NCBI GenBank assembly: GCA_946404125.1
Contig: CAMJCK010000008.1
Coordinates: 17,667-81,666 of the forward strand
Reading direction: 5' to 3'
From: an uncultured Bacteroidota bacterium
GTDB taxonomy: Bacteria; Bacteroidota; Bacteroidia; Bacteroidales; SZUA-534
DNA: 64,000 nucleotides
The notes beneath the pieces are model-generated. The model saw only the letters and a list, made by a program, of their open reading frames with translations. It made no database searches and was not told the DNA's origin. The translations under genes were made by a program, and so were the position numbers. This document shows positions 44,348 to 61,411 of the stretch, one piece after another (position 1 is the first letter of the stretch; the number at the start of each line of letters is the position of its first letter).

Positions 44348-47300
44348 ATGAAAAAACTATTTGCCAAGTTTTTCGCAGTTATGGCTATGGCCATAGGTAC
44401 TGCTGTGTCAGTTTTCGGACAAAACGGTTTCACTTATCAGGCGGTCATCCGCGACTCGGAGGGCGTGCTGGTCACCGGCAGGCAGGTTGAGGTCACGTTC
44501 AGCCTGAAGCACGACGGCACCGTCTACTACTCCGAGAAGCAGGAGGTGAGGACCAACGAGTACGGCAACATCCAGGTTGTCGTGGGCGAGGGAGAGAAGC
44601 TCGACGGCGACTTCGCCAGCGTGCCGTGGAGCACCTTCGACATCAAGATGGAGGTGTCCGTGGAGATTGACGGCAAGCACACAACCCTCGGCGAGGTACC
44701 GGTGCAGGGAGCGCCGTACGCGATGCACGCGCAGAAGGCCGGAGGCATCACGTCGAAGAATGCCAACACCAAGGACGGCGACGCTCTGTTCGCCGTTAAC
44801 GACGCCAGCGGCAACCCCGTGTTCGCCGTTTACGCCGACGGCATTGTGGTGTATGTTGACGACACCGAGACAGCCAAAGCCAAACGCAGCGGCTTTGTGG
44901 TTACCGGACGCTCGGCCACGAAGGGGGAGAGCACGACAGAATACTTCTCGGTAACAGCCGAGGGCACACAGATATACGTTGACGACGTGGCCGACAAGGC
45001 CAAGCGCAGCGGCTTCGTAGTCACGGGCCGCTCGGCCACCAAGGACGGCGACGCAGCCGACTACCTCAAGGTGGGCGGCGAGGGCACCACGATATTCATC
45101 GACGACGACTCGTCGAAAGCCAAACGCAGCGGCTTTGTGGTGACAGGCCGCTCGGCCACCAAGGACGGCGACGAGCCGCAGTACTTCACGGCCACAACAG
45201 AAGGAACGACAGTGTATGTTGACGACACCTCGGCCGACAAGGCCAAACGCAGCGGCTTCGTAGTGACGGGCCGCTCGGCCACCAAGGGCGGCGACGCCGA
45301 CGACTATATGTCAATCGACGGCAGCGGCACACAGGTGTACGTTGACGGACTGGACTCCGACAAGGCCAAGAGAAGCGGCTTTGTGGTTACAGGGCGCTCG
45401 GCTAGCAAGGCCGAGGAGGACACGCTGTTCGCCATCGAGGGCGGATACACCCGCGTGTACATCAACGACGAGGATGAGGACAAGGCCAAGAGGAGCGGAT
45501 TTGTTGTGACAGGCCGCACCGCCTCAAAAGACACCTCAGCCACCAATATCTTCAACGTGAGCGGTGACGGCAACTTGGATATTCTGACCAACGACTTCAC
45601 CGTGAACGACACGCCGGAGGAGACGGAGGAGACGGACACCGCGGCCGTGCAGCCGCAGCCCGGCGACACCACCGGGACACCAGCCCCGGCCCCGGTCATA
45701 CCGAAGCCGAAGAGCCTGTTCACCATCAGCAGCGGAAACGTTCAGGTGGGCACCGAGATGGTTATGATGGGCGACGTCGCCAAGACGATCGAGGCCGACA
45801 CCATCAGTGTTGACACCGTAGAGGCCGAGTTCCCGCAGATAGCGAAGATTGTTGACCGCGCCGACACCATCAGCTGCGCCCCGTACAAGCCGTTCATCTA
45901 TGGCAACGACAGCGACAGCGAGGGATACACCCTGCTTGGAATCTACATTAACGGATCGTTGGCGAAAATCACAGCCACCGACTCGCGCAAGAACAAAGTC
46001 ATACTCTTCGACGCCGACGGCAACGTGATAAAACGCCAGAGAAACGCCACCGTGGCAGTTCTTATGCCCGAGGGCGACACGCAGATATACATCAGGCCTC
46101 TGAAGGCGACAAGCCAGACCATCAGCTTCGGCCTGATGAAGAAGAACGCCGTCGAGCCGTACCAGTACGTCAAGGTTGAGGCCGAGATAGAGGCTTCGGC
46201 CGGAGTTCCGTACAAGGTTAGGACGAGCAGCAACTACGGCGGCCAGATTGTCATAGACGGCACCGTGGCCTACGGCGACCAGCCGACCTTCGAGCCTGTG
46301 CCGATGACCGGCTACAAGTTCGTTCGCTGGAGCGACGGAAGCACGAGGGCCAAACGCACCTTCACCATCCTCGACGACTTCGAGATATCGGCCGAGTTCG
46401 AGCGTATGAGCTACGTTGTCGCTGTTAAATCCGACAACGAGCTGTACGGAACGGTTACCGGCAGCGGCTCGGGCACCTACTGGCACGGCGACACGCTTAG
46501 AGTTGAGGCGGAGCCGGCTACGGGCTACTACTTCAGCAACTGGAGCGGCGCGGAGCTTGGCGACAGCCAGCAGAGCAGCAGCCTTGCGCTGGAGGTGACA
46601 TCGAAACTGAAGCTGATAGCGCACTTCGGCGTGAAGCAGTACACCATAACATTCGACACCGACGGCGGCAGCGAGATAGAGCCGGCCGTTGTGTACTACC
46701 AGGACAAGGTGACCGCGCCCGCCGAGCCGCAGAGAGAGGGCTACCGCTTCCTGGATTGGGAGCCGCGGCTTCCGAAAGAGATGCCTGCGGAGGACCTGAC
46801 CGTGAAGGCTACGTGGAGCGTCAAGCAGTACCTGATCACGTTCGACACCGACGGCGGCACCCCGGTTGACATTATAGACGCCAACTACGGCGAGGCCGTC
46901 ACAACCCCGGAGGCCCCGACCAGAGAGGGCCACACCTTCGCAGGCTGGAGCGACAGCATACCGGCCGTGATGCCGGCGCGCGACTTGAGAATCAAGGCGT
47001 TGTGGACTGTTAACCAGTACACCATCAAGTTCGATACCGACGGCGGCAGCAAGGTTGACAGCATAACAACGGACTACGGCACCAAGATTGCCGCACCTGA
47101 GAATCCGACCAAGGAGGGCTACACCTTTGCCGGTTGGAAGCCAGAGCTTCCGGCCACAATGCCTGCCGAGCTGACAGTCTGCACTGCACAGTGGAGCCTG
47201 AACGCACACAATATTATATATGTGGTTGACGACACCGTTTATGCCACCATCGACAGCGTGAACTACGGCGATGAGATTGAGCCGATAGACGCACCCGAAA

Positions 47301-50300
47301 GGACCGGCTACACCTTCAGCGGATGGAAGTTCAACGGCAAGGATGAGCTGCCGAAGACAATGCCCGACAGCGACATCACCATTACCGGCGGCTTCACGGT
47401 TAACCAGTACACCATCAAGTTCGAGACCGACGGCGGAAGCAAGGTTGACAGCATAACAATGGATTACGGAGCGAAGGTTACAGCACCTGAGAATCCGACC
47501 AAAGAGGGCTACACCTTTGCCGGTTGGAAGCCAGAGCTTCCGGCCACAATGCCTGCCGAGCTGACAGTCTGCACTGCACAGTGGAGCCTGAACGCACACA
47601 ATATTATATATGTGGTTGACGACACCGTTTATGCCACCATCGACAGCGTGAACTATGGCGATGATATTGAGCCGATTGACGCACCCGAAAGGACCGGCTA
47701 CGTGTTTAGCGGATGGCAGAATGTGCCTGCGACGATGCCCGACAGCACCGTCACCATCAGCGGATGGTTCACCGCGGGCTCTGTAACGCTCACGTTCACA
47801 GATGAGAACGGCGAGAACCCGATTGTGATTGCCGGCAACTACGGCGAGAAGGTTAAGATGCCGGAGAACCCGACCAAAGTGGGCTACACCTTCGCAGGCT
47901 GGACACCTGAGGTACCGGCCACAATGCCGGCCGAGGACGCCACCTTCAAGGCCACCTGGAGCGTTAACCAGTACACCATCAAGTTTGAGACCGACGGCGG
48001 AAGCAAGGTTGACAGCATAACAATGGACTACGGTGAGAAGATTGCCGCGCCGGAGAATCCGACCAAAGAGGGCTACACCTTCGCGGGATGGGATCCCGAG
48101 CTGCCCGAGACGATGCCTGTAAACGGAGCGACCTACACGGCGCAATGGACTGTGAACCAGTACACCATCAAGTTTGAGACCGACGGCGGAACCGAGGTTG
48201 ACAGCATAAAGATGAATTACGGCGCGTCGGTTACAGCACCTGAGAATCCGACCAAAGAGGGCTACACCTTTGCCGGTTGGAAGCCGGAGATACCGGCCAC
48301 AATGCCAGCCGAGCTGACAATCTGCACGGCACAATGGAGCCTGAACTCACACAATATTATATATATGGTTGAAGACACAGTCTATGCAACCATAAAGGAT
48401 GTGGCATACGGCACTGAGATTGAGCCTGTTACGATTGCCAGCAAGCCGGGCTACGACTTCAGCGGCTGGATGCTCAACGGCGAGGACGAGATGCCGAAGA
48501 CAATGCCCGACTGCACTGTTGTGCTCAGCGGCAAGTGGACGGCAAGCGACAAGACCGAGTACACGGTGATTGTCTATGTTCAGAACGCCGACAACAAGGA
48601 GTATGGCGAGCTGCCGGAAAGCAGCGAGACCTACTACGGCACCACCGGCACTATGACCAACTATGAGCCGGAGGAGCGCGAGGGCTTCGGGGCGGATGTT
48701 TCGCAGAAAGAAATCAGCGGCGACGGCTCGACGAAGATTTACGTCTACTACAACCGCATCAGCTATGAGATGAACTGGGGCGCCAACGGCGGCCAGTTTG
48801 AGGAAGGCACGACAATGGTGTTTGACACGCTCGCCTACGGAGCGAAGGTTGCAATGCCGAAGAGTCCGACCAGGGAGGGCTACACCTTCGCGGGCTGGAG
48901 CGACACACTGGCAACAATGCCGGCTTCGAACGTAACCGTCACGGCGAAGTGGGAAATCAACAAGCACACAATCACATACACAATTGACGGCGAAGTCTAT
49001 GTAACCGAAAAGAACGTGGTTTACGGAACTGAGATTAAGCCGTTTGATGGTCCCGAAAGGGAGGGCTACACCTTCATCGGATGGAAGTATGACGGCAAGG
49101 AGAAACTGCCGGAGACAATGCCCGACAGCGATGTCTTGTTCACCGGCACGTGGTCGGCAAACGACATCGTCTATGTTGTTGAGCACCTGCAGGCTGACCT
49201 GAGCGGCGAGTACACCATTCTGGCACAGCGCGATACGCTTACAGGCAAGGCAGGCGCCCAGACCGACGCCAAGGCTGAATCGTTCACCGGCTTCGAGGCC
49301 CAGACATTCAGCAACATTGAGATTGGAACCACCGACTTTGAGACAACGGTTGTCATCAACTACAAGCGCCTGAGCTACACACTGACTTGGGACGCCAACG
49401 GCGGAACCATCGACGGCAAGAGCGACAGCACCCAGACACTTCTGTTTGGGGCGCCGATAGTTGCTCCGACAGTTGAGCGCACAGGCTACGAGTGCAGCGG
49501 CTGGGCCGGTCTGGAAGTTGAGACTATGCCAGCCAAAAACCTCTCGGTTATGGCCTTGTGGGGCGCAGGCGAGGTTATCTACACCATTGAGCACAAAGGC
49601 GAGGGAGTAAACGGCGAATACACCATCATTGAGCAGAATACGAAAACCGGAACGACCGGCGAGCAGACAAAAGCCGCACCGAAAGAGTTCCCGGGCTTTA
49701 CCGCACCTGCAAGCATCGGCCAGCAGACAATCAAGGCCGACGGCTCGACAGTGGTTGAAATCCTCTACACCCGCAACAGCTATTACGTGATCTGGGACGC
49801 CAACGGCGGAACCATCGATGGCAAAGAGGCTGACACAGTGCCGGTTATATATGGTGCAACCATAAGCAAGCCTACCAATCTGGTACGCAAGGGCTACTCG
49901 TTCAGCAGCTGGACGCCGGAAGTTCCGGCCCAAATGCCGGCCAGGGACACCACCTTCAGCGCCAAGTGGGATACGCTGACCTACAGCATCACCTTCAAGG
50001 ATACCGCGGGCAGCACATTCGCGATGGCAAACCCGACGGCGTACACCGTCAACGACACAATCGTAATCGAGAATCCTGAGAAAGCAGGTTACACCTTCCA
50101 GGGCTGGACTGGCGGCAAGTGGACAACAGCCACCAAGGATATTGTTATCTTGAACGATACAGGCCGCATTGAGCTGAAAGCCAATTGGAACGCCGATGTA
50201 ACCTTATACAAGGTTCTGCACAAATATGAAAATCTTACCACAGGCTACACTGTTGAAACTGAGCGTCTTTCGGGCTTGACCGGCAGCACGACAACGGCTC

Positions 50301-53300
50301 AGCCGCAGCCGCGTACCGGATTCACGGCTCCCGAGTTTGCCAGCATTCAGCAGCAGACAATCCGCCCGGGCAGCGACACCACAACAATCGAAATCGTCTA
50401 CACCCGCAACAGCTACGACCTGACTTGGAAGGATGGCGATGAAACTATTGACACCGAGCACATTAGGTTTGAGGCCGTAGTGACAATGCACAGCTCGCTC
50501 ACCCTTGACGGTTACACTTTCAAAGGCTGGAGCGACACTCTGACCACAATGCCGGCCGCAAGCACCACACTGACAGCCGTTTGGGAAATCAACCAATACA
50601 CCATCGCATTCGAATCGAATGGTGGCAGCGCAGTTGACGCAATCACAGCCGATTACGATGCTGATGTTACTGCTCCGGCCAACCCGACACGTGAGGGCTA
50701 CACCTTCAAGGGTTGGGCAACCACGGCAACCGCAACGGCTGACGATGTTGTGACAATCGCAAGCAAAATGCCGGTTGGCGGCGCAACATACTACGCCGTT
50801 TGGGCAATCAACCAATACACCATCACCTATGATTTGGATGGTGGCACAGTTGCAACAGCCAACGCCGGGGACTACACCGTTGTAAGCGAGGATATTACCC
50901 TCAACAACCCGACCCGCACGGGCTACACCTTTGCAGGTTGGACCGGCACTGGTTTGAGCGAGGCGACAACAGAGGTTACCATTGCCAAAGGCTCAACTGG
51001 AAACCGCACATTCACAGCTACTTGGTCGCCAATATCGTACACTATAACCGTTACGGCCACCCCCGCTGAGGGCGGAACAGCAACAGGCGGCGGCTCTTAC
51101 GATTACGACGGAACAGCCACTCTTAAAGCCACTCCAGCTACTGGTTATGACTTTATCGGTTGGGACGACGGCGTTACAACCGAACAACGCACCGTTAACA
51201 TCACGGGAGCGGCAAGCTATGTTGCCAACTTCACCAAAAAGACCTTTACGGTAACAGCCTCGGCCAATGAGGCGGAAGGCTCGGTAACTATTTCAGGCAC
51301 GGCGGTTAACGGCAAATACGAGTACGGCTCAACCATTGCGATTACCGCCACACCGGCCACTGGTTATCACTTTGTGAACTGGAACGGCAAGGACGAACTG
51401 AAAGATGCGGAAACCAGTTTTACAGTCACGAAAGACAGCGCGCTCACGGCCAACTTTGCCATCGACCAATTTACCTTGACCTTCGGCTCGACCGACGAAA
51501 CACTGGGCACAGTTGCCGCAAAAGCCAACGGCAAAACCATTGCCAGCGGCAGCAAAGTTGACTACGGCACCGAGGTGACACTCACCGCCACACCGGTGGC
51601 GCACTATCACTTCCACGGCTGGAACGACGCCTACAGCTATAGCGAGCGTACAGTGACAGTGAGTGATGATGTTGAATATGTGGCAGCGTTCGCGCCCGAT
51701 ATTTACGACATAACTCTGGTTGCAAACAATGGCACTGACGACGAGCCTGACGAAATGAGTATTACTTACGGCACCGCCACAACTCTGAAACAGAACAATT
51801 TTGAAAGGCCGGGCTATACATTCGCAGGCTGGGCACTCGAGGAGGGTGGTGAACCTGTTTTTGCCGATAAGGCCAACCTCTATGAAAAAGACAATGCTGA
51901 CACCTGGATTCTCAGCAGTACCACATTCTACGCCAAGTGGACAGCCAACACCAACACTCCGTACTCGGTTGTGGTGTATAAGCAGAAAGTTGACGGCAGC
52001 GGCTACGATGCAGAAACTCTGCAGATGACCGGCACCACCGGCACCGAAGTCAATTACGAGGAGAAGTTTACCGGCTTCACGCTGAACCCGTCCGAGCCAG
52101 TGACCATCAGCGGTGACGGAGATACGCAACTTGAGGTTTACTACTTGCGCAACAGCTACAAACTGACCTGGGACGCCAACGGCGGCAAGTTTGAGAGTGG
52201 CAAGGCGGATTCGGTTGCTACCGTGGCTTATGGGGCTAATGTGGAGATGCCTAAGACGGCGCCCAAGAAGACGGGCTACACCTTCAAAGGCTGGAGCGAC
52301 ACTCTGACCACAATGCCGGCTGAGAACACAACCCTGACAGCCGTTTGGGCTATCAACAAGTACACAGTGATCACACCCGATGCCTACAACGGCACCGTTA
52401 CGGGCGCGGGAACATACGACTATGGCACCGAAGTGACCATTACGGCCACACCCGATGCACACTACCAGTTTGTGAGCTGGAACGGCAACATCGAGTTGGG
52501 TGGCCCAACAGCCAGCTTCACGGTGACGAAAGACACCACGCTGGAAGCCACCTTTGAGCCCATTATGTACGCGCTCAGCTGGGATGCCAACGGCGGCAGC
52601 GATTTGACCGGCTCGTACACCATCGGTAGGTTGCCATTCGGCGAGTCAATTAGCGCTCCCGACGCACCCACACGCGCGGGCTACCAGTTCCTTGGCTGGG
52701 CAACCACGGCTGATGCCACCGAAGCAGTGACCGTGGCCGCAACAATGCCCGATACCGATGTAACATATTATGCAGTATGGAAGCTGCTCACCACGCTTTA
52801 TGTGGCTCCGGAGGCTGGCTCGCCGGCACTCGGAACGGCCGATAAACCGTTTGGCTCGATTGCCGATGCTGCGGCGGCGATGAACAGCGACACCGCCAAC
52901 TACACCATCCGCATCAGCGGAAAGATTGCCGGCACACAGAAACTTGCCAACACATTGAACGGCCGGGCCAAGAGCATCACCCTCTGCGGCCTCACGGGCA
53001 ACACCGCCGACAGTCTCTATGGCAACAACGCGGGCACGGTGCTTATCGATAGCACAACAGTTCCGGTAACGGTTAAGAACCTGAAGATTTCGGGCGGAAA
53101 CGCCGTGAAAGGCGGCGGCATCATAGTGGCTTCAGGAGCCACAGTTACGCTTGAAAGCGGAGCTCTGATTGGCGGAACAGCCGGCACTGCAGCAGCAAGC
53201 AGCAACTCGGCTTGTGCAAACTATGCGCAGCAGGGGGGTGGCGTTTATAGCGAGGGAACGCTCATTCTGAAAAACGGATCTGCAGTAATTTATAATTATA

Positions 53301-56300
53301 GCGATAATGGAGGCGGAATCTTCAGTAGCGGAGGCTCGCTCACAATAGAGGATGGCGCGAAAGTCAACCTTAATGGTGGCGGCGGTATCGTATTAAACGG
53401 TTCTGCATTCGCAATGACCGGCGGCGAGGTATGCAATAATAACAGCAGCAATGGTGCTGGCGGAATCTATATTTTGGGCACCTGCCCCGATGTGATGACC
53501 ATAAGCGGCGGAACAATTTCCGGAAACTCGGTTGGTAGCGATGGCGGCAGCGGCGGAATTTATTATACTGGCGGCAAGACACTTTCCATCAGCGGCACTG
53601 CTGTAATCAGCGGCAACCATTCGGTTTACGAAGGTGGCGGCATAAGAAATTCCTCTGGTTTGCTTGCCCTGAGCGGTGGCACAATCAGCGGTAATTATAG
53701 TGAAATAGCAGGCCGGTCGGGCGGAGGAATTGCCGCTATAGGCAGTGGCTATATAACAATAAGCGATTCCGCTTACATCCCGTCGGGGGCAACAATAAAC
53801 GGAACGTTCAAGACCGGATTAGGTTGCAACGATGTCTTGCAAAACTGGGGTTCAATTACAGTTGTAGGGGCTATTACACCATCTGCGGCTTGTAGCAACG
53901 GCATTGTGGCAAACATCACTCCACGAAATTATGAAAATGGTAATCAGCTGCTTGCCCTTGCCGACACTGTCACCACAACCACCCTTGCGGCCGAGGTTGG
54001 CAAGTTCCGCGTTTCCGACACCGACACCACCGACCTGACAGTGTGGTACATTGACGCCGAAGGCAAGCTGCAGAAAGCAGAGTTCACCGGCACAAGCTAC
54101 AGCAAGACCGGCAGCACAGTACAGTTTGGCGACTGGCCGCAGACCATCAAGGCCGCCGATGTAACCGTGAACGAGCGCGTAGCCTTGCAGCGCGGCTACC
54201 TCACCTACTATCTTGGCAGCGATGGCGAGTGGTATGTGAAAGAGGCGGAAAACGCATTTAGTTCAGATAGTCATTACAAATACAGCAACGGAGTTCAGCC
54301 GGCACAGGGCGGTACACGTTACCAATACTTCAAGGTTGAGCCAATCAAGTGGGACATCCGCACAAACAACTACAGCGGAGCCAAGATGATGCTTGCGCAA
54401 CAGATGCTCACAGGCAACATTCCATACTACGTTCAAACTGAAAGCCGCACCATTGACGGCACCACGGTGAATGCCAACAACTACAAGTATTCAACCGTCC
54501 GCGCCTACCTGAACGGCAGCTACGAGGAGGGCGACACCCAGCCGCAGACCTACAACGGCCAGGGCTTCTTCCAGACAGCCTTCACACCCGCGTTGCAAGC
54601 CCAGATACTCACAACGAACGTTGACGACACATTGAGCGACAAGCTGTTCCTGCTCAACAACGACGAGGCATCGGGAGCAAAATCGACCACCGATTATGGA
54701 AAGGCTACAAATGTGTATATAAGTGCCAATTACAAACCAAATGGCAGTTGGATGCTACGCTCGCCATCGGGCACCACAAATATGTATATTGTTGACATAT
54801 CGCTTGTTGGCTGGGGCGATGGTCACACAAAAGCTGTCAACTCAACCCAATATGGCGTTGTTCCAGCCCTCTGTCTTGAGGCCGATTTTGAGGTGAATTT
54901 TGTCACCAACTGCGACACCGTTATTGCCAAGCAGATGGTTGAAAGGGGCGCTTGCGCGACAGAGCCTGCCATAACCCGCGAGGACTACACATTGCTCGGC
55001 TGGTACGGCGACGAAGCTTGCACTGAAGCATTCGACTTTGCCGGCGCAATAATTCGTGACACAACGCTTTACGCCAAGTGGAGACAGGATTTTGTAGAGG
55101 TTGGCGGAACCCACTTTGACAGCACAGCCGTTGAAGGCTCCAGCGTCTTCATCAGCGGCCGCGAGTTTGCCATTCAGAACCTTGTGGCAGGCACTCACGA
55201 GGTAACACAGACTGAATATGAGGCTGTTATGGGTGTAAACCCAAGCCATTTCAACGGCACGGAAGGTCTTGAGCCTTCTGTTGGCGAAATTCAGGCTTAT
55301 CGCCCGGTTGAGACTGTCAGCTGGTACGATGCCATTGTTTACTGCAACCGCCGTAGCCAAGCCGAAGGGCTTACTGCCTGCTACAAGATTAATGGTGACA
55401 CCGCCACAGCCAATTGGGGAGAAGTTCCGACTTCAAACAACGATACTTGGAACGCGGTAACCTGCGACTTTGAGGCCAACGGCTACCGCCTGCCCACCGA
55501 GGCTGAGTGGGAGTATCTGGCCCGCGGCGGCAATCTCACCAACAGCGGCCAGACCACTTACAGCGGAAGCAATTCGGCTGACAGTGTTGCTTGGTACACT
55601 GACAACAGCAGTAGCAAGACACACGAGGGTAGACTCAAGAAAGCCAACGCCTTAGGCATCTACGATATGAGCGGAAACGTTTATGAGTGGTGCTGGGATT
55701 GGTTCGGCAATATATCGAAGGATACGGCTGCCACAGGTGCATCGTATGGCACTTACCGCGTTACGCGTGGCGGTGCAAAACAAAATGAGGATGACCGTTG
55801 CGAAGTGTCGTTCCGCGACAATCTGTCGCCATTCAACAGTGGTGACTACCTCGGCCTCCGCGTGGTTCGCACCAATGTTTCGGCCACCACGCACACCGTT
55901 AGCATCAATGCTATGAACGGCTCAGCAATAGCCAGCCAGACAGTTTGGAAAGGCTACATCCTCTCGAAACCCGCCACACCAACCCGCGAGGGCTATGTAT
56001 TCCTTGGCTGGTACGGCACCGCGGATTACACTAAACCGTTCGATTTTGCCGGCGCAATCACTTCCGACACAACCATCTACGCCAAGTGGGGGCAATACTA
56101 CGCCAAAGTGGGCGGCACACTCTATTACGACAAGGAATCGACCATTTCAGCCATCAGTCAGATTTACAAAAATGATACTATAGAGCTCTACAGCGCGGTA
56201 ACAGCTGCCGATTTGGGCAAGGCAGATGAGCCGAACACCATCATCTATGCAATCAAATACATTCAAAGCCAAATTGGAGTAACTCTTGTGGTGCCAGAGG

Positions 56301-59281
56301 GAGCCAACATTGTGCTTGAGGGTGATGATTGCAAGGATATGTTCCAAAATTGCTCGAAACTTGTATCGGCCGATTTGCGGGGCTTCAATACTGAATATGT
56401 CGAGGATATGAGCTTTATGTTCGATGGTTGCCGGGCTCTTGCCACTCTCGATGTGAGCGGTTTCAACACAAGCAATGTGAGAACAATGTCTGATATGTTC
56501 GATGTTTGCGAAGCCATCACCAAGCTTGATTTGAGTAACTTCAACACAAGCAATGTGACCGATATGAACGATATGTTCAGGTATTGTTCGTCTCTCGAAG
56601 CTGTCGATTTGAGCAGTTTCAACACCGAGAAGGTTGAATTAATGAGTGCTATGTTCATCTGGTGCGAAAAACTTACCACGCTCGATTTGAGTAGCTTCAA
56701 CACCGCAAAAGTCTATAATTTAAGCGGTATGTTCACTGGTTGCACGGAACTCAAAACCATCTACGCCGCAAGCGAAGCCAATTGGGGTGTAAGCGACGAC
56801 CCGTATTTTGTGTCGGGTGATATGTTCAAAGATTGCTCGAAGCTAGTAGGCGGCAGCGGCACCACATTCAATAGCAGTGCCATTGATGCCACCCGCGCCC
56901 GCATTGACGGCGGTGAGGGTAATGAGGGTTACTTCACCATCAAGCCCATTAGCTACTACTACATCACCCCGGGTTTGGACGATTACACCGGCCATACCGG
57001 CCTCACAGCCGAGCAGGCTCTGCCAAATATCGATTCGGCACTTGCAAGAATAAGCGGTGAAGGTTCGGATGGCATCACATACTTTCTCAAAATTAGCGGT
57101 GGCCTCACTGGCCAACAATCCATTGGCGATACGCTCAACGGCAAGGCGAGGCGGATTGTGCTGGAGGGCGTTACAGGCAATACAGTCGACAGCCTCTATG
57201 GAAACAACGTCGGCATAGTGCTTACCGTTGCCACCTCTGTGCCAGTTGAAATTCGCAACTTAAAAATCACCGGCGGGAAGGCAGCAAAGGGCGCCGGTGT
57301 TTATGTTGATAATGCCAATGTAACTATCGGCGACGGAACGTTGATTGCCAATAATATAGCAGATGGAGACGGCGGTGGCGACGCTTTAGGCGGTGGTGTT
57401 TATGTTGGCAATGGTGGCTATGTTAGAATGACAGACGGCATAATCAGTGGTAATATAGCTGCCGGCACTGGTTTTGGTAGCAATTATGGCGCTGGTGTTT
57501 GTATTTACAGAGGTGGTACATTCACTATGGATGGAGGCGAGATAATCAACAATACATCTAAAGGAGGCATATATCTTGGGGGAAGCGGCGGCGGTGTTAT
57601 GGTTTTTCCAAGTGCAACGTTTAGTATGAATGCCGGAACAATTAGTGGCAATATAGTTGAAAATGGCAGGGACGAAGGCGGTTATGAAGGTAGTGGTAAA
57701 GGTGTTTTTGTGTTCGGTGCTCAAGCAGGAGAAGAGGGAGGCACCTTTATTATGGGCGGCAATGCACAGATAGCCAGTGATAACGATGTTTATCTGTGCG
57801 AAGGTACGGTTATCACCATTGCCAGCGTACTCGATAATATGTATGCGGGCACCATCACCCCGCAGAGTTACCCTGAGAGCTACACAACGGAGCTTCCGGT
57901 ATTTGCTTTTGCCGACGGCGTTGACGGCAAGCAGGGCGTCAAGTTCAAAGTGACACCCGAGCAGCGCGGTGGCAAAACATACTACTGGTACACCAATGGT
58001 GGAGGTAAGATTAGCAAAGACCAGTGCCGCATCAATGTGCCGAACGATGCCGCCCACCCGTATGTCCTCACTTACGACTCGGAATATAAAATTTCTTCCG
58101 ATGCTGCCGGTCACCCCGAGGTTTATATCGCTAAAGATGTTTCAGGCGTCACAACCTCACTCAGCTACTACGTAACATTGGATGGCTACAAGCGGGTTTC
58201 GCCACGATATCACAGTAGTTTTAGTATGTACAACTATAACTCTGGCGTAAAGTTCTACTATCATATCACGCTCGAGGGCGATAATTCCATCCAAAACAAC
58301 GACAGAGCACCCCTTTTCTATGGGGGAGCTGGCAATGCCGAACTGATATTCGATGCCACCTCAGCCACCGGTGGCACACTTTCGCTCTCAGTAACCGATG
58401 CCAGCAACAACGCTTTCTATCTTGAACCCGGATCGGGCACTATAAACTTCAAGGTTGCCGATGGCTGCACGTTCACCGGCACAGTTGGCGAAACAACCTA
58501 CAGCGATATTACCGAGTTCTTCAATGCTGCCAAAACAAACTCAAGCGCAAGCTTCACGGTTAAGCGCTGGGCCGTCAGCGAGAACGGCCACCAATATGTT
58601 GATTTAGGCCTTACAAGCGGCACCCTTTGGGCAACAACCAACGTGGGTGCAACAAATCCGCAGGATTACGGCGATTACATTGCTTGGAGCGAGACGGAGC
58701 CGCTCTACGCAACACTAGACCCGCTTACTTGGAGAGCAGACAAGGATACTTCGGGTTATTCGTGGGTAAACTTCACATTATCAGATGGAGATAGTGAAAA
58801 CTTTACCAAATATAATAGCACCGATGGCAAAACCATCCTCGACCCTGAAGATGATGCCGCCACCGTCAACTGGGGCAGCGGTTGGGCAACACCTACACCC
58901 GCCGAAGCTTGTGAACTTGAAAAAGAGTGCTATTGGGAGTGGACAACCAATTACAATGGTACGGGCGTTGCGGGTTACATTGTTTACAAATCAGTTGACA
59001 AGAGTAAGGACTATAATGAAATCAGCAACCAGAAAGTATCTTCGCGAAAACACGACTCTGGTCATACCTATTCACCATCAACCGACGCGCACATTTTCCT
59101 TCCAGCGGCGGGTCGTTTCACTTTCAAAACTGTGGTAGACCCATCCATCGGTTTCTTCATGACGGCTTCCCCGGGTGGTTCTGACGCACAACTTATGCAA
59201 GTTGGGTCAAGCTTAACTCAATATGGTTATGGCTATCCCCGCCGCACGGGTTTCTCGGTTCGTCCGGTGAAGAGGCCATAG
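44348..59281 (+). CDS. Giant mosaic cell-surface protein
   Basis: A single uninterrupted 14.9-kb ORF.
- Signal peptide MKKLFAKFFAVMAMAIGTAVSVFGQ.
- Conserved N-terminal module with six KAKRSGFVVTGR cores.
- Dozens of Listeria-Bacteroides (Flg_new) and InlB-B-type repeats, recognised by recurring GY.F.GW motifs.
- Two Gly-rich right-handed beta-helix-like regions (~52.8-53.9 kb and ~56.95-57.9 kb).
- DUF6273-like segment: EPIKWDI, DKLFLLNNDEA, WMLRSP, YGVVPALCL.
- FGE-sulfatase/SUMF1 motifs: RPVETVSWYDA, YRLPTEAEWEY, GNVYEWCWDW, RVTRGG.
- DUF285/BspA-type LRRs: FNTSNVTDMNDMF, about five copies.
- C-terminal FISUMP/DUF1566-like domain: GTLWATTNVGA, IFLPAAGR, GFSVRPV.
- A -7 box TATCTTTG lies at 44275-44282. 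Confidence 0.85.
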   Translation: MKKLFAKFFAVMAMAIGTAVSVFGQNGFTYQAVIRDSEGVLVTGRQVEVTFSLKHDGTVYYSEKQEVRTNEYGNIQVVVGEGEKLDGDFASVPWSTFDIKMEVSVEIDGKHTTLGEVPVQGAPYAMHAQKAGGITSKNANTKDGDALFAVNDASGNPVFAVYADGIVVYVDDTETAKAKRSGFVVTGRSATKGESTTEYFSVTAEGTQIYVDDVADKAKRSGFVVTGRSATKDGDAADYLKVGGEGTTIFIDDDSSKAKRSGFVVTGRSATKDGDEPQYFTATTEGTTVYVDDTSADKAKRSGFVVTGRSATKGGDADDYMSIDGSGTQVYVDGLDSDKAKRSGFVVTGRSASKAEEDTLFAIEGGYTRVYINDEDEDKAKRSGFVVTGRTASKDTSATNIFNVSGDGNLDILTNDFTVNDTPEETEETDTAAVQPQPGDTTGTPAPAPVIPKPKSLFTISSGNVQVGTEMVMMGDVAKTIEADTISVDTVEAEFPQIAKIVDRADTISCAPYKPFIYGNDSDSEGYTLLGIYINGSLAKITATDSRKNKVILFDADGNVIKRQRNATVAVLMPEGDTQIYIRPLKATSQTISFGLMKKNAVEPYQYVKVEAEIEASAGVPYKVRTSSNYGGQIVIDGTVAYGDQPTFEPVPMTGYKFVRWSDGSTRAKRTFTILDDFEISAEFERMSYVVAVKSDNELYGTVTGSGSGTYWHGDTLRVEAEPATGYYFSNWSGAELGDSQQSSSLALEVTSKLKLIAHFGVKQYTITFDTDGGSEIEPAVVYYQDKVTAPAEPQREGYRFLDWEPRLPKEMPAEDLTVKATWSVKQYLITFDTDGGTPVDIIDANYGEAVTTPEAPTREGHTFAGWSDSIPAVMPARDLRIKALWTVNQYTIKFDTDGGSKVDSITTDYGTKIAAPENPTKEGYTFAGWKPELPATMPAELTVCTAQWSLNAHNIIYVVDDTVYATIDSVNYGDEIEPIDAPERTGYTFSGWKFNGKDELPKTMPDSDITITGGFTVNQYTIKFETDGGSKVDSITMDYGAKVTAPENPTKEGYTFAGWKPELPATMPAELTVCTAQWSLNAHNIIYVVDDTVYATIDSVNYGDDIEPIDAPERTGYVFSGWQNVPATMPDSTVTISGWFTAGSVTLTFTDENGENPIVIAGNYGEKVKMPENPTKVGYTFAGWTPEVPATMPAEDATFKATWSVNQYTIKFETDGGSKVDSITMDYGEKIAAPENPTKEGYTFAGWDPELPETMPVNGATYTAQWTVNQYTIKFETDGGTEVDSIKMNYGASVTAPENPTKEGYTFAGWKPEIPATMPAELTICTAQWSLNSHNIIYMVEDTVYATIKDVAYGTEIEPVTIASKPGYDFSGWMLNGEDEMPKTMPDCTVVLSGKWTASDKTEYTVIVYVQNADNKEYGELPESSETYYGTTGTMTNYEPEEREGFGADVSQKEISGDGSTKIYVYYNRISYEMNWGANGGQFEEGTTMVFDTLAYGAKVAMPKSPTREGYTFAGWSDTLATMPASNVTVTAKWEINKHTITYTIDGEVYVTEKNVVYGTEIKPFDGPEREGYTFIGWKYDGKEKLPETMPDSDVLFTGTWSANDIVYVVEHLQADLSGEYTILAQRDTLTGKAGAQTDAKAESFTGFEAQTFSNIEIGTTDFETTVVINYKRLSYTLTWDANGGTIDGKSDSTQTLLFGAPIVAPTVERTGYECSGWAGLEVETMPAKNLSVMALWGAGEVIYTIEHKGEGVNGEYTIIEQNTKTGTTGEQTKAAPKEFPGFTAPASIGQQTIKADGSTVVEILYTRNSYYVIWDANGGTIDGKEADTVPVIYGATISKPTNLVRKGYSFSSWTPEVPAQMPARDTTFSAKWDTLTYSITFKDTAGSTFAMANPTAYTVNDTIVIENPEKAGYTFQGWTGGKWTTATKDIVILNDTGRIELKANWNADVTLYKVLHKYENLTTGYTVETERLSGLTGSTTTAQPQPRTGFTAPEFASIQQQTIRPGSDTTTIEIVYTRNSYDLTWKDGDETIDTEHIRFEAVVTMHSSLTLDGYTFKGWSDTLTTMPAASTTLTAVWEINQYTIAFESNGGSAVDAITADYDADVTAPANPTREGYTFKGWATTATATADDVVTIASKMPVGGATYYAVWAINQYTITYDLDGGTVATANAGDYTVVSEDITLNNPTRTGYTFAGWTGTGLSEATTEVTIAKGSTGNRTFTATWSPISYTITVTATPAEGGTATGGGSYDYDGTATLKATPATGYDFIGWDDGVTTEQRTVNITGAASYVANFTKKTFTVTASANEAEGSVTISGTAVNGKYEYGSTIAITATPATGYHFVNWNGKDELKDAETSFTVTKDSALTANFAIDQFTLTFGSTDETLGTVAAKANGKTIASGSKVDYGTEVTLTATPVAHYHFHGWNDAYSYSERTVTVSDDVEYVAAFAPDIYDITLVANNGTDDEPDEMSITYGTATTLKQNNFERPGYTFAGWALEEGGEPVFADKANLYEKDNADTWILSSTTFYAKWTANTNTPYSVVVYKQKVDGSGYDAETLQMTGTTGTEVNYEEKFTGFTLNPSEPVTISGDGDTQLEVYYLRNSYKLTWDANGGKFESGKADSVATVAYGANVEMPKTAPKKTGYTFKGWSDTLTTMPAENTTLTAVWAINKYTVITPDAYNGTVTGAGTYDYGTEVTITATPDAHYQFVSWNGNIELGGPTASFTVTKDTTLEATFEPIMYALSWDANGGSDLTGSYTIGRLPFGESISAPDAPTRAGYQFLGWATTADATEAVTVAATMPDTDVTYYAVWKLLTTLYVAPEAGSPALGTADKPFGSIADAAAAMNSDTANYTIRISGKIAGTQKLANTLNGRAKSITLCGLTGNTADSLYGNNAGTVLIDSTTVPVTVKNLKISGGNAVKGGGIIVASGATVTLESGALIGGTAGTAAASSNSACANYAQQGGGVYSEGTLILKNGSAVIYNYSDNGGGIFSSGGSLTIEDGAKVNLNGGGGIVLNGSAFAMTGGEVCNNNSSNGAGGIYILGTCPDVMTISGGTISGNSVGSDGGSGGIYYTGGKTLSISGTAVISGNHSVYEGGGIRNSSGLLALSGGTISGNYSEIAGRSGGGIAAIGSGYITISDSAYIPSGATINGTFKTGLGCNDVLQNWGSITVVGAITPSAACSNGIVANITPRNYENGNQLLALADTVTTTTLAAEVGKFRVSDTDTTDLTVWYIDAEGKLQKAEFTGTSYSKTGSTVQFGDWPQTIKAADVTVNERVALQRGYLTYYLGSDGEWYVKEAENAFSSDSHYKYSNGVQPAQGGTRYQYFKVEPIKWDIRTNNYSGAKMMLAQQMLTGNIPYYVQTESRTIDGTTVNANNYKYSTVRAYLNGSYEEGDTQPQTYNGQGFFQTAFTPALQAQILTTNVDDTLSDKLFLLNNDEASGAKSTTDYGKATNVYISANYKPNGSWMLRSPSGTTNMYIVDISLVGWGDGHTKAVNSTQYGVVPALCLEADFEVNFVTNCDTVIAKQMVERGACATEPAITREDYTLLGWYGDEACTEAFDFAGAIIRDTTLYAKWRQDFVEVGGTHFDSTAVEGSSVFISGREFAIQNLVAGTHEVTQTEYEAVMGVNPSHFNGTEGLEPSVGEIQAYRPVETVSWYDAIVYCNRRSQAEGLTACYKINGDTATANWGEVPTSNNDTWNAVTCDFEANGYRLPTEAEWEYLARGGNLTNSGQTTYSGSNSADSVAWYTDNSSSKTHEGRLKKANALGIYDMSGNVYEWCWDWFGNISKDTAATGASYGTYRVTRGGAKQNEDDRCEVSFRDNLSPFNSGDYLGLRVVRTNVSATTHTVSINAMNGSAIASQTVWKGYILSKPATPTREGYVFLGWYGTADYTKPFDFAGAITSDTTIYAKWGQYYAKVGGTLYYDKESTISAISQIYKNDTIELYSAVTAADLGKADEPNTIIYAIKYIQSQIGVTLVVPEGANIVLEGDDCKDMFQNCSKLVSADLRGFNTEYVEDMSFMFDGCRALATLDVSGFNTSNVRTMSDMFDVCEAITKLDLSNFNTSNVTDMNDMFRYCSSLEAVDLSSFNTEKVELMSAMFIWCEKLTTLDLSSFNTAKVYNLSGMFTGCTELKTIYAASEANWGVSDDPYFVSGDMFKDCSKLVGGSGTTFNSSAIDATRARIDGGEGNEGYFTIKPISYYYITPGLDDYTGHTGLTAEQALPNIDSALARISGEGSDGITYFLKISGGLTGQQSIGDTLNGKARRIVLEGVTGNTVDSLYGNNVGIVLTVATSVPVEIRNLKITGGKAAKGAGVYVDNANVTIGDGTLIANNIADGDGGGDALGGGVYVGNGGYVRMTDGIISGNIAAGTGFGSNYGAGVCIYRGGTFTMDGGEIINNTSKGGIYLGGSGGGVMVFPSATFSMNAGTISGNIVENGRDEGGYEGSGKGVFVFGAQAGEEGGTFIMGGNAQIASDNDVYLCEGTVITIASVLDNMYAGTITPQSYPESYTTELPVFAFADGVDGKQGVKFKVTPEQRGGKTYYWYTNGGGKISKDQCRINVPNDAAHPYVLTYDSEYKISSDAAGHPEVYIAKDVSGVTTSLSYYVTLDGYKRVSPRYHSSFSMYNYNSGVKFYYHITLEGDNSIQNNDRAPLFYGGAGNAELIFDATSATGGTLSLSVTDASNNAFYLEPGSGTINFKVADGCTFTGTVGETTYSDITEFFNAAKTNSSASFTVKRWAVSENGHQYVDLGLTSGTLWATTNVGATNPQDYGDYIAWSETEPLYATLDPLTWRADKDTSGYSWVNFTLSDGDSENFTKYNSTDGKTILDPEDDAATVNWGSGWATPTPAEACELEKECYWEWTTNYNGTGVAGYIVYKSVDKSKDYNEISNQKVSSRKHDSGHTYSPSTDAHIFLPAAGRFTFKTVVDPSIGFFMTASPGGSDAQLMQVGSSLTQYGYGYPRRTGFSVRPVKRP
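44876..45529 (+). repeat. Coding array of six ~40-aa repeats with the core KAKRSGFVVTGR(S/T)A(T/S)K (giant protein)
   Basis: The first 12 core residues are identical in all six copies, while codons differ (GTGGTT/GTAGTC/GTGGTG for VV; CGC/AGA/AGG for R). The spacers are variable. Confidence 0.9.
47009..47715 (+). repeat. 390-bp in-frame tandem repeat within the giant gene (two units, second truncated)
   Basis: The units start at 47009 and 47399. 47114-47265 and 47504-47655 read identically over 152 bp. More diverged copies of the same module start near 47958 and 48153. Confidence 0.85.
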
Positions 59282-59552: not shown

Positions 59553-59608
59553 TTTGTCCGCGTCGTCGCGGACAAAGCCACGCGGACAAAGCCACGCGAA
59601 CGAAACCG
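59553..59608 (+). promoter_or_regulatory. Hairpin TTTGTCCGCG-TCGT-CGCGGACAAA overlapping a 14-bp tandem repeat (CGCGGACAAAGCCA twice plus a degenerate third copy), in the predicted 5' leader of the RayT-like gene
   Basis: A -7 box TACATTTG at 59540-59547 places the transcription start at about the hairpin foot. The tandem units are at 59567-59580, 59581-59594 and 59595-59608. Confidence 0.6.
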
Positions 59609-59650: not shown

Positions 59651-60799
59651 ATGGCGGACAATACAGAACACAACAGACCTAAGTTTTGGAACCCCACCGA
59701 CACAAGCCGCCATCACCGAATGAACGACTGGGATTACTGCAACCGCGCCATTTACCATATTACGCTTGCCGTTGCCGGGCGGCGGCACTTGTTCGGCGAG
59801 TTGGTGGGCGACAGTGCCGATACTGCCCGGATAGAGCTCAATGAATTTGGGGTTCGGGTTTATCGGAAACTGTACGGCACACCGCAATTCTACGCGCCCA
59901 AAGGGTACTCTCTGCAACTCCTTGCCCTGAAAGTTATGCCCGACCATCTGCACTTTGTTATTTTCGCAAAGTCGCGGTTGCCCAAACCTATCGGGAACGT
60001 AGTTCGAGGTTTCAAGAGCGGTTGCTCCTCTCTTTTCAGGCGCACGTATGCCAAATGTGCCGAAAACGCCCAACAGCCAGAGCATACGCCGCCAGTGCTT
60101 GCCGGTTTTGTTCCGGTTTTTGAGGCGAATGGCGGTAGCATCTGGGAGAAGATACCGGCCGGCTATCACGAGCGCATTCTTTTCGGAAAAGGCCAGCTCC
60201 AAAATATGATAAACTACGTTCGCGACAACCCGCGCCGGCTGTGGCTGAAGAGGCATAATCCGGAGCTTTTCAGGCTGCACCGGCAGACCGAGGTGCGCGG
60301 ACTGACGTTCACCTCGCTGGGCAACCATTTCCTGCTCGACTGGCCGGTCAGGCAGTTGGTGGAGATGTCGCGCAGCGCCAGCGAGGAGCAGATTGAGGAG
60401 CGGCTGCAGGAGGTTTGGGCGGAGGCCCGCAGCGGGGCGGTGACCTACACGGCGGCCATCAGTCAGGGCGAGAAGCTGATTGCCTGCACCTTGCGCGAGC
60501 AGGGTTTTCCGCTGGTTATTCTTCTTTGCGATGGCTTCCCGGCCGCCGATTTGCCCGAGGCGCGCTATTTCAAGCCCGGCGGCCCATATTTTGAGGCTTG
60601 CGCCGATGGACGGTTGCTACTTTTGGAGCCGTCGGAGGCGGTGTTTCAGACGCCGGCCATTGTTGAGGCCACCAACCGCGCACTCCTTCAGAAATCGGAG
60701 GCCCGCCACACCAGTTATTCCGGGCTTGCCGGCGATTCGCAGCGCTACCGTTTTGTGGCGCTGAACCAGATTGGAAGATGGTTGGCAGAGGAGAGATGA
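59651..60799 (+). CDS. RayT/IS200-like HUH (Y1) transposase-fold protein fused to an unassigned ~170-aa C-terminal domain
   Basis: IYHITLAVAGRRHLF, MPDHLHFVI (the HUH motif), VVRGFKSG, and IWE...GYHERILF....L.NMINYVRDNP (catalytic Tyr context YxxxNP) follow the order of REP-associated tyrosine transposases. The C-terminal half has no transposase counterpart. Confidence 0.65.
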   Translation: MADNTEHNRPKFWNPTDTSRHHRMNDWDYCNRAIYHITLAVAGRRHLFGELVGDSADTARIELNEFGVRVYRKLYGTPQFYAPKGYSLQLLALKVMPDHLHFVIFAKSRLPKPIGNVVRGFKSGCSSLFRRTYAKCAENAQQPEHTPPVLAGFVPVFEANGGSIWEKIPAGYHERILFGKGQLQNMINYVRDNPRRLWLKRHNPELFRLHRQTEVRGLTFTSLGNHFLLDWPVRQLVEMSRSASEEQIEERLQEVWAEARSGAVTYTAAISQGEKLIACTLREQGFPLVILLCDGFPAADLPEARYFKPGGPYFEACADGRLLLLEPSEAVFQTPAIVEATNRALLQKSEARHTSYSGLAGDSQRYRFVALNQIGRWLAEER

Positions 60800-60925
60800 A
60801 AAGAAACATTGCACCCGCACTTATTTATTAATCTGTTGAAAACAAATTGCTAAATAATTTGCCATTCAATCAATAATGTATATATTTGCGTTTTGAAAAA
60901 TAAGATTAATTCAAAAATTAATTCT

Positions 60926-61411
60926 ATGAAAAGAAAATTAACCATTGCGGCTTTGCTGTTTGTTTCAGTACCCGCATTTTCTCAGTTCAAACAGAGCGAA
61001 GTTGTGGCTTCTGCTGGTGGATTTGAGGCCAATGCCAATTTTTCAATCAGCTACACCATTGGCGAACCTGTAGCCGGAACGCTAAAGGCTGGTGATTTGA
61101 TTGTTGTGCAAGGTTTCCAACAGGGTTATACTGTTAAGCAGGATGTTAGCGTTGCCGACGAGTGGGCCAACAACGTCACCATCTACCCGAACCCGGTTAG
61201 CAAAACACTGTATGTAGCTATGGATGAGGCTCCGGCAGGTGAGTGCACGGCGCGTCTTTTCGATATGACAGGCCGTTTGGTTGGCGAGAACAACTTCAAC
61301 GGCGATGTTCGTGTGTCGCTCGATGTTGAGGCTCTGCCGCAGGGAGCATACTTTGTGAAGATTTTTGTTGACGACCGTGCGGTAGTCAACCGTAAGATTA
61401 TGAAGTACTAA
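60926..61411 (+). CDS. Small secreted protein with T9SS C-terminal sorting domain
   Basis: Signal MKRKLTIAALLFVSVPAFSQ. The N-terminal motif is SAGG....SYTIGEPV......QGFQQ. The C-terminal TIYPNPVSKTLYV....GAYFVKIFVDDRAVVNRKIMKY matches the type A CTD. A TATATTTG box lies at 60881-60888. Confidence 0.8.
   Translation: MKRKLTIAALLFVSVPAFSQFKQSEVVASAGGFEANANFSISYTIGEPVAGTLKAGDLIVVQGFQQGYTVKQDVSVADEWANNVTIYPNPVSKTLYVAMDEAPAGECTARLFDMTGRLVGENNFNGDVRVSLDVEALPQGAYFVKIFVDDRAVVNRKIMKY

Follow-up and report, generated by a model that had tools for sequence, protein, structure and literature searches.

The 64,000-nucleotide stretch of DNA analyzed here (hereafter the window) is part of contig CAMJCK010000008.1 of an uncultured Bacteroidota bacterium in the Bacteroidales lineage SZUA-534 (GenBank assembly GCA_946404125.1, positions 17,667 to 81,666 of the forward strand). 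It encodes two proteins, a giant of 4977 aa (44348-59281, + strand) and a paralogue of 768 aa (61506-63812, + strand), that each carry six tandem copies of a repeat of about 40 residues built from a nearly invariant 16-residue core and a more variable hairpin. With moderate confidence, we favor the reading that cores and hairpins together make up a structural repeat in the shaft of surface fibers that are probably trimeric and resemble the mosaic adhesive trimers (MAT) of Bdellovibrio, with the number of copies setting the length of the stalk. An element of this kind, the stalk repeat of a mosaic fiber adhesin, is already known; the repeat family itself is unnamed and fairly widespread. We found no description of MAT-like fibers or of this repeat in Bacteroidota in the literature.

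Translation of 44876-45529 (+) in the giant protein yielded six cores of the form KAKRSGFVVTGR(S/T)A(T/S)K. The first four read KAKRSGFVVTGRSATK, and they are followed by one ending in SASK and one ending in TASK, at spacings of 40, 40, 41, 41, and 40 aa. All six cores of the paralogue (62040-62699, +) are KAKRSGFVVTGRSATK, spaced by 41, 41, 40, 42, and 40 aa. The first core begins at residue 177 of the giant protein and residue 179 of the paralogue. These counts, starting points, and end variants agree with an earlier note on this DNA that was made from the sequence alone. The 48-nt cores start at 44876, 44996, 45116, 45239, 45362, and 45482 in the giant gene and at 62040, 62163, 62286, 62406, 62532, and 62652 in the paralogue gene. 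A six-frame motif scan of the whole window found 12 core copies in total, all within these two arrays, and a chance origin of 12 exact copies of a 12-mer peptide is impossible.

The cores of the giant array are separated by acidic hairpins of 24-25 aa, and both arrays contain the spacer pattern that the earlier note had described, (Y/L)..V...GT.(I/V)(Y/F)(V/I)DD. Charge alternates along the array, with five basic residues per core (K, K, R, R, K) and five to eight acidic residues per spacer. Directly ahead of the first core stands a starter unit, a double hairpin at 44783-44875 (+) in the giant gene (ALFAVNDASGNPVFAVYADGIVVYVDDTETA) and at 61944-62039 (+) in the paralogue gene (EPIFEVKDKDGNLVFAVYPDGVKVYVDDTDVT), where AlphaFold2 (AF2) placed strands at residues 150-153, 159-164, and 167-170. 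The starter is conserved family-wide: its double hairpin (LFEVKDxxGNxVFAVYxDGVxVYVD) opens every array, and F150, V152, K153, G157, F161, A162, V163, V170, V172, and D173 were near-invariant columns in alignment A1. It is also found after collagen segments in two relatives, L022 and L029.

The cores vary at the level of DNA. Arg4 is encoded by CGC, AGA, or AGG and the Val-Val pair by GTGGTT, GTAGTC, GTGGTG, GTAGTG, GTTGTG, or GTAGTA, in keeping with the synonymous codon differences reported earlier. Copies within the giant gene show as many as 14 differences over 48 nt, nearly all of them synonymous. Paralogue cores are identical at 44-48 of 48 nt and have their own codons, GCA for Ala2 and AAA for Lys16. 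Tandem Repeats Finder (TRF) registered the arrays as diverged DNA repeats with a period of 120/123 and 72-73% matches. The divergence among giant cores and the low TRF match rate uphold the claim that the arrays do not stem from a recent DNA duplication.

To define the family, we built a hidden Markov model (HMM) from the 12 window units and exhaustively searched 1.84 billion proteins, counting representatives at 50% identity. The search returned 792 representative proteins at E ≤ 1e-3, of which 98 were at E ≤ 1e-30. A word-indexed search gave 538 homologues, chiefly from metagenome-assembled genomes (MAGs) of Salinivirgaceae. Scanning GTDB genomes located at least 575 loci in MAGs of Bacteroidales (Salinivirgaceae, Tenuifilaceae, and others). 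Many of these MAGs come from the rumen or elsewhere in the gut, and single genomes have as many as ten family genes or more. The closest genome was the rumen MAG RUG13583, a close relative with 95% nucleotide identity overall and 97-100% over most of the paralogue gene. One family member (L059, JBKHIH010000043.1) lies on a contig binned as the gammaproteobacterium Thiohalospira sp., which may be a case of mis-binning. No model in Pfam, NCBIfam, or PHROGs covers the 40-aa unit above threshold; the fragments that fell on the array below threshold were Phage_Gp84 (22.6/27 bits), Imm74 (22/27 bits), PUD, and phrog_16684. Searching PDB sequences with the N-terminus of the paralogue recovered no relative, only spurious matches to ribosomal L15 at E ≥ 0.06. 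The repeat is thus without a name in any of these collections, as the earlier reading had supposed.

The unit consensus, drawn from 971 unique units in 235 proteins, is D-[YL]-[FL]-x-[VI]-[ND]-x-x-G-T-x-V-[YF]-V-D-[DE]-x(3-5)-K-A-x-[RK]-[ST]-G-F-[AV]-V-[TSA]-G-R-x-A-x-K, in which the apparent conservation of G11 and [RK]12 is inflated because the regular expression used to collect units enforces both. Proteins carry 2-16 copies (17 in L022) at a spacing of 37-44 aa. Each unit consists of an amphipathic β-hairpin with acidic ends and a hydrophobic core strand with basic ends, and the hydrophobic positions of the hairpin (2.4-3.4 bits) are conserved as well as the core. Since the spacers contain this conserved hairpin, they are not free linkers. 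Copy number is stable inside orthogroups, at six in the giant-type and paralogue-type groups and eight in a group with KAM.TGFAVSGR cores, which is consistent with selection on length. Hundreds of protein clusters preserve the center of the core, GF[AV]V[TS]GR...K, but not the exact 16-mer, whose flanks vary by genome. The core is therefore conserved beyond the genome in which it was noted, though not in its full extent. The K-R dibasic pair is likewise not family-wide, being replaced in KAMSTG, KAAHTG, KGKVGG, and KSVGGF variants that keep GF.V.GR. Two loci contain tandem clusters of family genes with 2-4 units each, five genes in L079 and four in L068, and every clustered gene shares a genome-specific core (KGKVGGFAVSGRSPSK in L079 and KGKVGGFAVSGRNPNK in L068).

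Relatives place the array among modules of known fibers. Among 48 repeat-bearing representatives, 45 matched the N-domain model Bdello_MAT_N (NF053851) at E ≤ 1e-3, with a best E of 7.4e-13, every score lying below the curated 60-bit cutoff and covering part of the 162-position model, so that the homology is significant but gives no curated membership. Fourteen of the 48 had Peptidase_S74, 11 had YadA_head, and three had collagen; others had InlB B-repeats, leucine-rich repeats (LRR), Big_1, or CarboxypepD_reg domains. Peptidase_S74 was also present in L022, P0038, P0053, and P0068, and both window proteins are non-S74. The L022 protein of RUG13583 (3148 aa; L022:2215-11658, +) runs from the N-domain through 14 collagen matches, the 17-unit array, and eight YadA_head repeats to Peptidase_S74. 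This is the most telling case, as the array sits immediately between modules found in trimeric form only, namely collagen, the YadA head, and S74. In P0038, the last half-hairpin (LFAVDAN) passes directly into YadA-head repeats. The collagen part of L022, in which globular inserts interrupt the triple-helix repeats, is longer than 1000 aa.

Structure prediction treated the array differently from its surroundings. A monomer AF2 model of paralogue residues 1-431, based on a multiple sequence alignment (MSA) of 48 sequences, had a predicted local distance difference test score (pLDDT) above 90 in the N-domain and below 50 in the array. Only the spacer hairpins formed within the array, and the cores were left unstructured. 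Residues 360-600 were also modeled separately; confidence was again low in the last unit and in the GNVQVNSDLLMTGEV segment behind it, and an Ig-like sandwich was predicted confidently. Foldseek comparisons of the confidently modeled parts with the PDB yielded no specific fold match for the N-domain model (all E ≥ 0.009), and across both AF2 models only generic Ig/C2-like sandwiches, none at E ≤ 1e-3. Prediction thus supplied the hairpins of the repeat but did not assemble the solenoid that the earlier note had raised as one possible architecture, nor a propeller. According to these models, the array is not a self-sufficient monomer fold. Low confidence of this kind fits the behavior expected of an obligate-oligomer shaft.

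Under the reading we favor, the 16-residue core would be the most constrained strand of a structural repeat of about 40 residues, each unit comprising an acidic β-hairpin, a short acidic linker, and a basic-flanked hydrophobic strand. Tandem units following the starter double hairpin would form the shaft of Sec-exported cell-surface fiber proteins that begin with a MAT-homologous N-domain and end in swappable heads. We infer that three chains run in parallel, with hairpin and core strands packed around the fiber axis, and this packing would be why a single chain does not fold alone. Copy number, six here and 2-17 across the family, would set the length of a stalk that holds C-terminal adhesin or enzyme domains off the cell. 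We regard the repeat as a structural shaft because the hairpin is conserved, unit length is held at 37-44 aa, and arrays stand between obligate-trimer modules. For the window proteins themselves, a trimeric state is suggested by homology of their N-domain, starter, and array to the relatives with collagen, YadA heads, or S74. The invariance of the core would result from strong purifying selection at the peptide level combined with concerted evolution, in which the conserved 48-nt cores seed unequal crossing-over or conversion within the gene. Conversion would keep copies alike within each protein and, at the weakly constrained flanks, also keep paralogous genes alike within each genome.

We used the Nei-Gojobori method to estimate synonymous (dS) and non-synonymous (dN) divergence and pooled the proportions of synonymous (pS) and non-synonymous (pN) differences from 51 arrays at related loci. 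Within the giant protein, dS was 1.02 and dN 0.046 in the cores (ratio 0.045), compared with 1.2 and 0.82 in the spacers. Between the giant protein and the paralogue, core dS was 1.25 and dN 0.024 (ratio 0.02), corresponding to pS of 0.53-0.61 and pN of 0.02-0.03. The 51 pooled arrays had pS of 0.55 and pN of 0.058 in cores, and pS of 0.67 and pN of 0.31 in spacers. Overall, dN/dS was 0.02-0.05 for cores and 0.3-0.7 for spacers. Peptide-level purifying selection on the cores is real. Within the paralogue, core dS (0.225) was about ninefold lower than spacer dS (2.0), and therefore DNA-level homogenization acts there too. The earlier attribution of the invariance to selection on the peptide is supported by the core ratios, but it is incomplete because homogenization in the paralogue and concerted evolution also act.

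Comparison of orthologous arrays separated the history of the spacers from that of the cores. Spacers were positionally orthologous, with identity higher on the diagonal than off it for the paralogue versus P0004 (0.69 and 0.44), the giant protein versus L003 (0.69 and 0.37), L003 versus L002 (0.56-0.73 and 0.21-0.62), and L013 versus L010 (0.73 and 0.33). Yet each core copy differed between the same arrays. For example, all 6-7 copies showed the one-codon indel that separates xKAKRSG... from KAARRSG..., and S13 was opposed to A13 in 6/6. One exact unit duplication occurred in L002. Core pS within arrays (0.22-0.54) was lower than between genes (0.47-0.76). Cores evolve in concert across the family.

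Core type tracked the genome rather than the gene lineage. N-domains defined orthogroups A (the giant protein, L003, and L002), B (the paralogue and P0004), and C (L022 and L029). In all three, cores read KA[KR]RSGFVVTGR in the RUG13583 lineage and KAARR[ST]GFVVTGR in the CAMHPA01 and GCA_016648615 genomes. After regression on N-domain identity, genes of the same genome had an excess core identity of 0.27, a value reached by 0/5000 label permutations, in a statistic that leaves out the window proteins and whose regression does not fully remove phylogenetic structure. Recent inter-gene conversion was unsupported as the source of this pattern: core pS between genes of the same genome was 0.47-0.72, no lower than across genomes. 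Selection for matching cores within a genome is possible. This genome-tracking, core-restricted concerted evolution is the most interesting aspect of the family.

Several observations weigh against a trimeric shaft. The case for trimerization of the array comes from flanking domains in relatives, and both window proteins are without collagen, YadA-head, and S74 modules. They continue instead into domains that fold as monomers, an Ig-like sandwich in both and, in the giant protein, InlB B-repeats, LRR, and FGE-sulfatase-like domains. Three arms of 4500 residues on each shaft would be unusual, and low AF2 confidence over the array would fit a flexible tether equally well. An in-register homotrimer needs no identical repeats, so the uniformity of the cores requires the additional argument from conversion, and core pS between genes of one genome is not reduced. 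The inflated conservation of G11 and [RK]12 in the consensus belongs on the same side.

It is conceivable, though we think it rather improbable, that uniformity of the cores, over all repeats and over anciently diverged paralogues of a genome, is functionally required and does not merely follow from conversion, either because paralogues form mixed trimers or because one co-evolving factor assembles, exports, or anchors all of them. A mixed trimer may, for example, combine the 4977-aa protein with its syntenic 768-aa neighbor, as both have six units and first cores starting at residues 177 and 179. If so, mixed trimers would relieve the steric problem of three giant arms per shaft. A dedicated core-reading factor may be represented by the small neighboring protein with a C-terminal domain (CTD) of the type IX secretion system (T9SS). 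If this were true, it would suggest a way for fibers without a sorting domain to arrive at the Bacteroidota surface and be retained there.

The earlier note had proposed that the core is a binding, anchoring, or processing site, with lipopolysaccharide (LPS), peptidoglycan, or a modifying enzyme as candidate targets. This was unsupported overall, since the hairpin, the fixed unit length, and the trimer-module context point to structure. The binding idea survives as a multivalent array of linear motifs, in which a flexible, charge-alternating tether docks its cores onto a genome-encoded partner (the small T9SS-CTD neighbor, a chaperone or usher, or a modifying enzyme) with which they co-evolve, or onto a negatively charged surface polymer, for example LPS or capsule. 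We consider this unlikely but deserving of attention, mainly on account of the genome-tracking cores and the low AF2 confidence. A core type that follows the genome without recent inter-gene conversion is what a trans-acting partner would predict. Core pLDDT below 50, five basic residues in the core facing five to eight acidic residues in the spacer, and a small T9SS-CTD gene as conserved neighbor agree with docking as well. However, a flexible tether does not account for the amphipathic hairpin and tight length of the spacers, for the conserved starter that opens every array, or for arrays spliced straight between collagen and YadA-head trimer modules. The GF[AV]V[TS]G center of the core is a hydrophobic β-strand, atypical for an exposed motif, and no partner was identified. 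The one-codon indel shared by all copies favors conversion over independent compensatory mutation. Cleavage or modification of the cores, at KR-SG or GR-SA, would make each protein a polyprotein-like precursor or a carrier of modification sites. An invariant dibasic K-R-S-G in both window proteins speaks for it, and identical peptides with variable spacers resemble multi-core precursor peptides, though by analogy only. The processing idea is weak, and we judge it highly improbable: GF.V.GR is conserved in the family and the dibasic pair is not, cutting at every unit would leave the heads unconnected to the N-terminal anchor domain, and the surrounding genes include no protease or maturase. The Bacteroidota O-glycosylation motif is D-[ST]-[AILVMT], and in both window arrays it is absent from the core and turns up only here and there in spacers. 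An isopeptide cross-link between Lys and Asp is a purely speculative idea.

A monomeric closed or solenoid fold, such as a YVTN-type β-propeller whose blades of about 40 residues would number seven if the starter joined the six cores, was suggested by the only PDB match of the 12-unit profile, 1l0q (the YVTN β-propeller of a Methanosarcina S-layer protein; summed E 2.3e-6), which has a like period (~42 aa) and a like hairpin (AVxPDGTKVYV). The match covers 14/41 profile positions, with i-E-values of 35-300 for the individual stretches, and 1l0q was rejected as a homologue because only the hairpin is matched. No YVTN model appeared in the NCBIfam output at E ≤ 1 or in the 48 relatives. The unit has three strands rather than four, copy number ranges over 2-17, and arrays lie inside linear fibers. 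AF2, which is normally confident on propellers and solenoids, closed none here even though the neighboring domain exceeded pLDDT 90 from the same MSA. A propeller is therefore quite improbable in our estimation, if slightly less so than processing. Least likely of all, to the point of being negligible, is that the cores are identical merely because tandem duplication was recent or gene conversion is ongoing, with the peptide itself under no selection. The near-identity of paralogue cores at 44-48 of 48 nt, their dS of 0.225 against 2.0 in spacers, and the exact unit duplication in L002 are what this would produce. Against it, giant cores have a dS (1.02) close to that of spacers (1.2) with a dN of only 0.046, cores compared between genes have pS of 0.53-0.61 and pN of 0.02-0.03, the 51 arrays have pS of 0.55 and pN of 0.058, and the DNA repeats are 72-73% identical. 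This contrast between synonymous and non-synonymous change refutes duplication as the sole explanation.

The two host genes share an architecture up to the end of the array and somewhat beyond. The giant protein consists of a signal peptide, MAT-like N-domain, starter, six-unit array, Ig-like post-array domain, and a long C-terminal part of repeats and domains, for which Pfam reported Flg_new (20 matches), Flg_new_2 (seven), DUF6273, an FGE-sulfatase-like domain, and DUF285/PARCEL repeats. Its N-terminal β-sandwich (~aa 26-135; 44423-44752, +) matched Bdello_MAT_N at E 4.7e-8 with 33 bits and is presumed to be the cell-proximal anchor. The paralogue has the same order through the Ig-like domain and then a variable C-terminal tip. 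Its N-terminal β-sandwich (aa 27-125; 61584-61880, +) was modeled at pLDDT 90-96 over residues 30-120 and matched Bdello_MAT_N at E 1.3e-12 with 47.9 bits (45-48 bits). Both proteins start with a signal-peptide-like sequence. The Ig-like β-sandwich after the array (aa ~449-585 of the paralogue, 62850-63260, +, pLDDT ~90; ~aa 455-610 of the giant protein, 45710-46177, +) is homologous between the two (BLASTP E 9e-10, 27% identity over 162 aa) and recurs in many relatives of the non-S74 type; no Pfam model describes it, and Foldseek against the PDB gave only generic Ig-like matches at E > 0.01. Pfam and NCBIfam matches of the window proteins included no β-barrel anchor. Neither the C-terminal 999 aa of the giant protein (NCBIfam scan) nor the paralogue contained a T9SS sorting domain.

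Between the two fiber genes lies a gene for a small protein of ~160 aa with a T9SS type A CTD (60893-61411, +; Por_Secre_tail 49 bits, TIGR04183 42.5 bits), which probably starts at the ATG at 60926. Homologues of this protein are encoded directly upstream of family genes at L001, L006, L007, L012, L015, L020, L049, and L071, and the order of giant gene, small CTD gene, and paralogue recurs at the P0004 locus. By gene order it is a conserved neighbor of paralogue-type genes, and as a partner of the fibers it is at most a candidate. The neighbors of the arrays (a CE2/GDSL esterase, an alanine dehydrogenase, a RAYT-like open reading frame (ORF), and the T9SS-CTD protein) included no protease or maturase. 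The RAYT-like ORF (59651-60799, +), located between the giant and small CTD genes, had a sub-threshold match to REP-associated tyrosine transposases (RAYT/Y1_Tnp) and only 65% aa identity to its RUG13583 counterpart, although the flanking DNA was ~95% identical. The last ~150 codons of the paralogue (63341-63790, +) were 83-88% identical to RUG13583 at the nucleotide level and the rest of the gene 97-100%, and this mosaic tip suggests recombinational tip swapping. The Flg_new (InlB B-repeat) region of the giant gene contains a 390-bp tandem duplication at 47009-47716 (+; TRF, 1.8 copies, 94% matches) that is much younger than the 120-bp array repeats. Just after the giant stop codon, a perfect 14-bp tandem repeat, CGCGGACAAAGCCA, is present in 2.3 copies in the intergenic region at 59567-59598. 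We also considered a prophage tail-fiber origin of the window genes and dropped it, as the repeat is absent from the 2.9 million viral contigs of IMG/VR, where a single contig (L080, IMGVR_UViG_3300034072_002231) matched as a relative of the N-domain only.

These results define a repeat family without a name that comprises some 800 clusters of proteins (50% identity), and they would extend MAT-type fiber architecture from predatory Bdellovibrio to abundant Bacteroidales of the rumen and gut. Ten or more of these proteins, some near 5000 residues, are encoded in single genomes, and they are probably major determinants of what the cells adhere to, be it plant fiber, other microbes, or host surfaces. 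The family also provides a clean natural example of concerted evolution limited to a 16-residue core, the rest of each unit diverging freely. Whether a common partner or mixed assembly is involved can be tested directly, since core types track genomes and not gene lineages.

Comparison with known systems distinguishes the window proteins from T9SS cargo, since a type A/B C-terminal sorting domain was found in neither. The YVTN propeller (1l0q; TIGR02276) is alike in period (~40-42 aa) and hairpin (AVxxDGTxVYV), and it differs in having four strands rather than three, no counterpart of the basic core strand, and no open-ended copy number. S74 phage tail fibers and tailspikes of the endosialidase type share the C-terminal S74 found in ~30% of sampled members and an upstream β-structured shaft that needs trimerization to fold, a property that the shaft here would have by analogy. 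In contrast to these phage proteins, the repeat has no meaningful PHROG match and no occurrence among the 2.9 million viral contigs, and the genes are chromosomal with signal peptides. Trimeric autotransporter adhesins (YadA) are similar in that a repeat-built stalk of variable length projects a head, and many members of the family have YadA-head repeats right after the array. Unlike them, no C-terminal YadA-type β-barrel anchor was matched here by Pfam or NCBIfam (in the giant protein, L022, P0038, P0053, or the 48-member census), where head repeats were the only matches to this group. Polarity is reversed with a presumed N-terminal anchor, and a β-rich stalk with a period of 40 aa takes the place of a coiled coil.

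In Gram-positive surface proteins (for example Rib/alpha-C or SasG E-G5), tandem stalk repeats remain near-identical through concerted evolution, with whole units homogenized, often at the DNA level. They resemble the present family as length-setting adhesin stalks with intragenic homogenization and changes in copy number. The difference is that here the 16-aa core alone is uniform, within units whose spacers are ~35-50% identical and whose synonymous sites are near saturation.

The closest resemblance is to the MAT proteins of Bdellovibrio bacteriovorus, which have been demonstrated experimentally to be trimeric surface fibers with an invariant N-domain and S74 or non-S74 tips (Caulton et al. 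2024, PMC10769870). The MAT N-domain is presumed to be cell-proximal, and the shafts shown near the tips are β-helices and β-prisms, a 40-aa hairpin-plus-core repeat not being described in that work (PMC10769870). The present family differs in belonging to Bacteroidales rather than Bdellovibrionota, in N-domain scores below the 60-bit cutoff, and in members of up to ~5000 aa with InlB B-repeats, LRR, and FGE-sulfatase-like domains. Trimers are experimental in Bdellovibrio, and here trimeric state and surface display are predicted from sequence. What the two have in common is a homologous N-domain (45/48 members), the succession of conserved N-domain, long shaft, and swappable C-terminal tips with the same split into S74 and non-S74 forms, and a multigene family with many paralogues per genome and mosaic tips.

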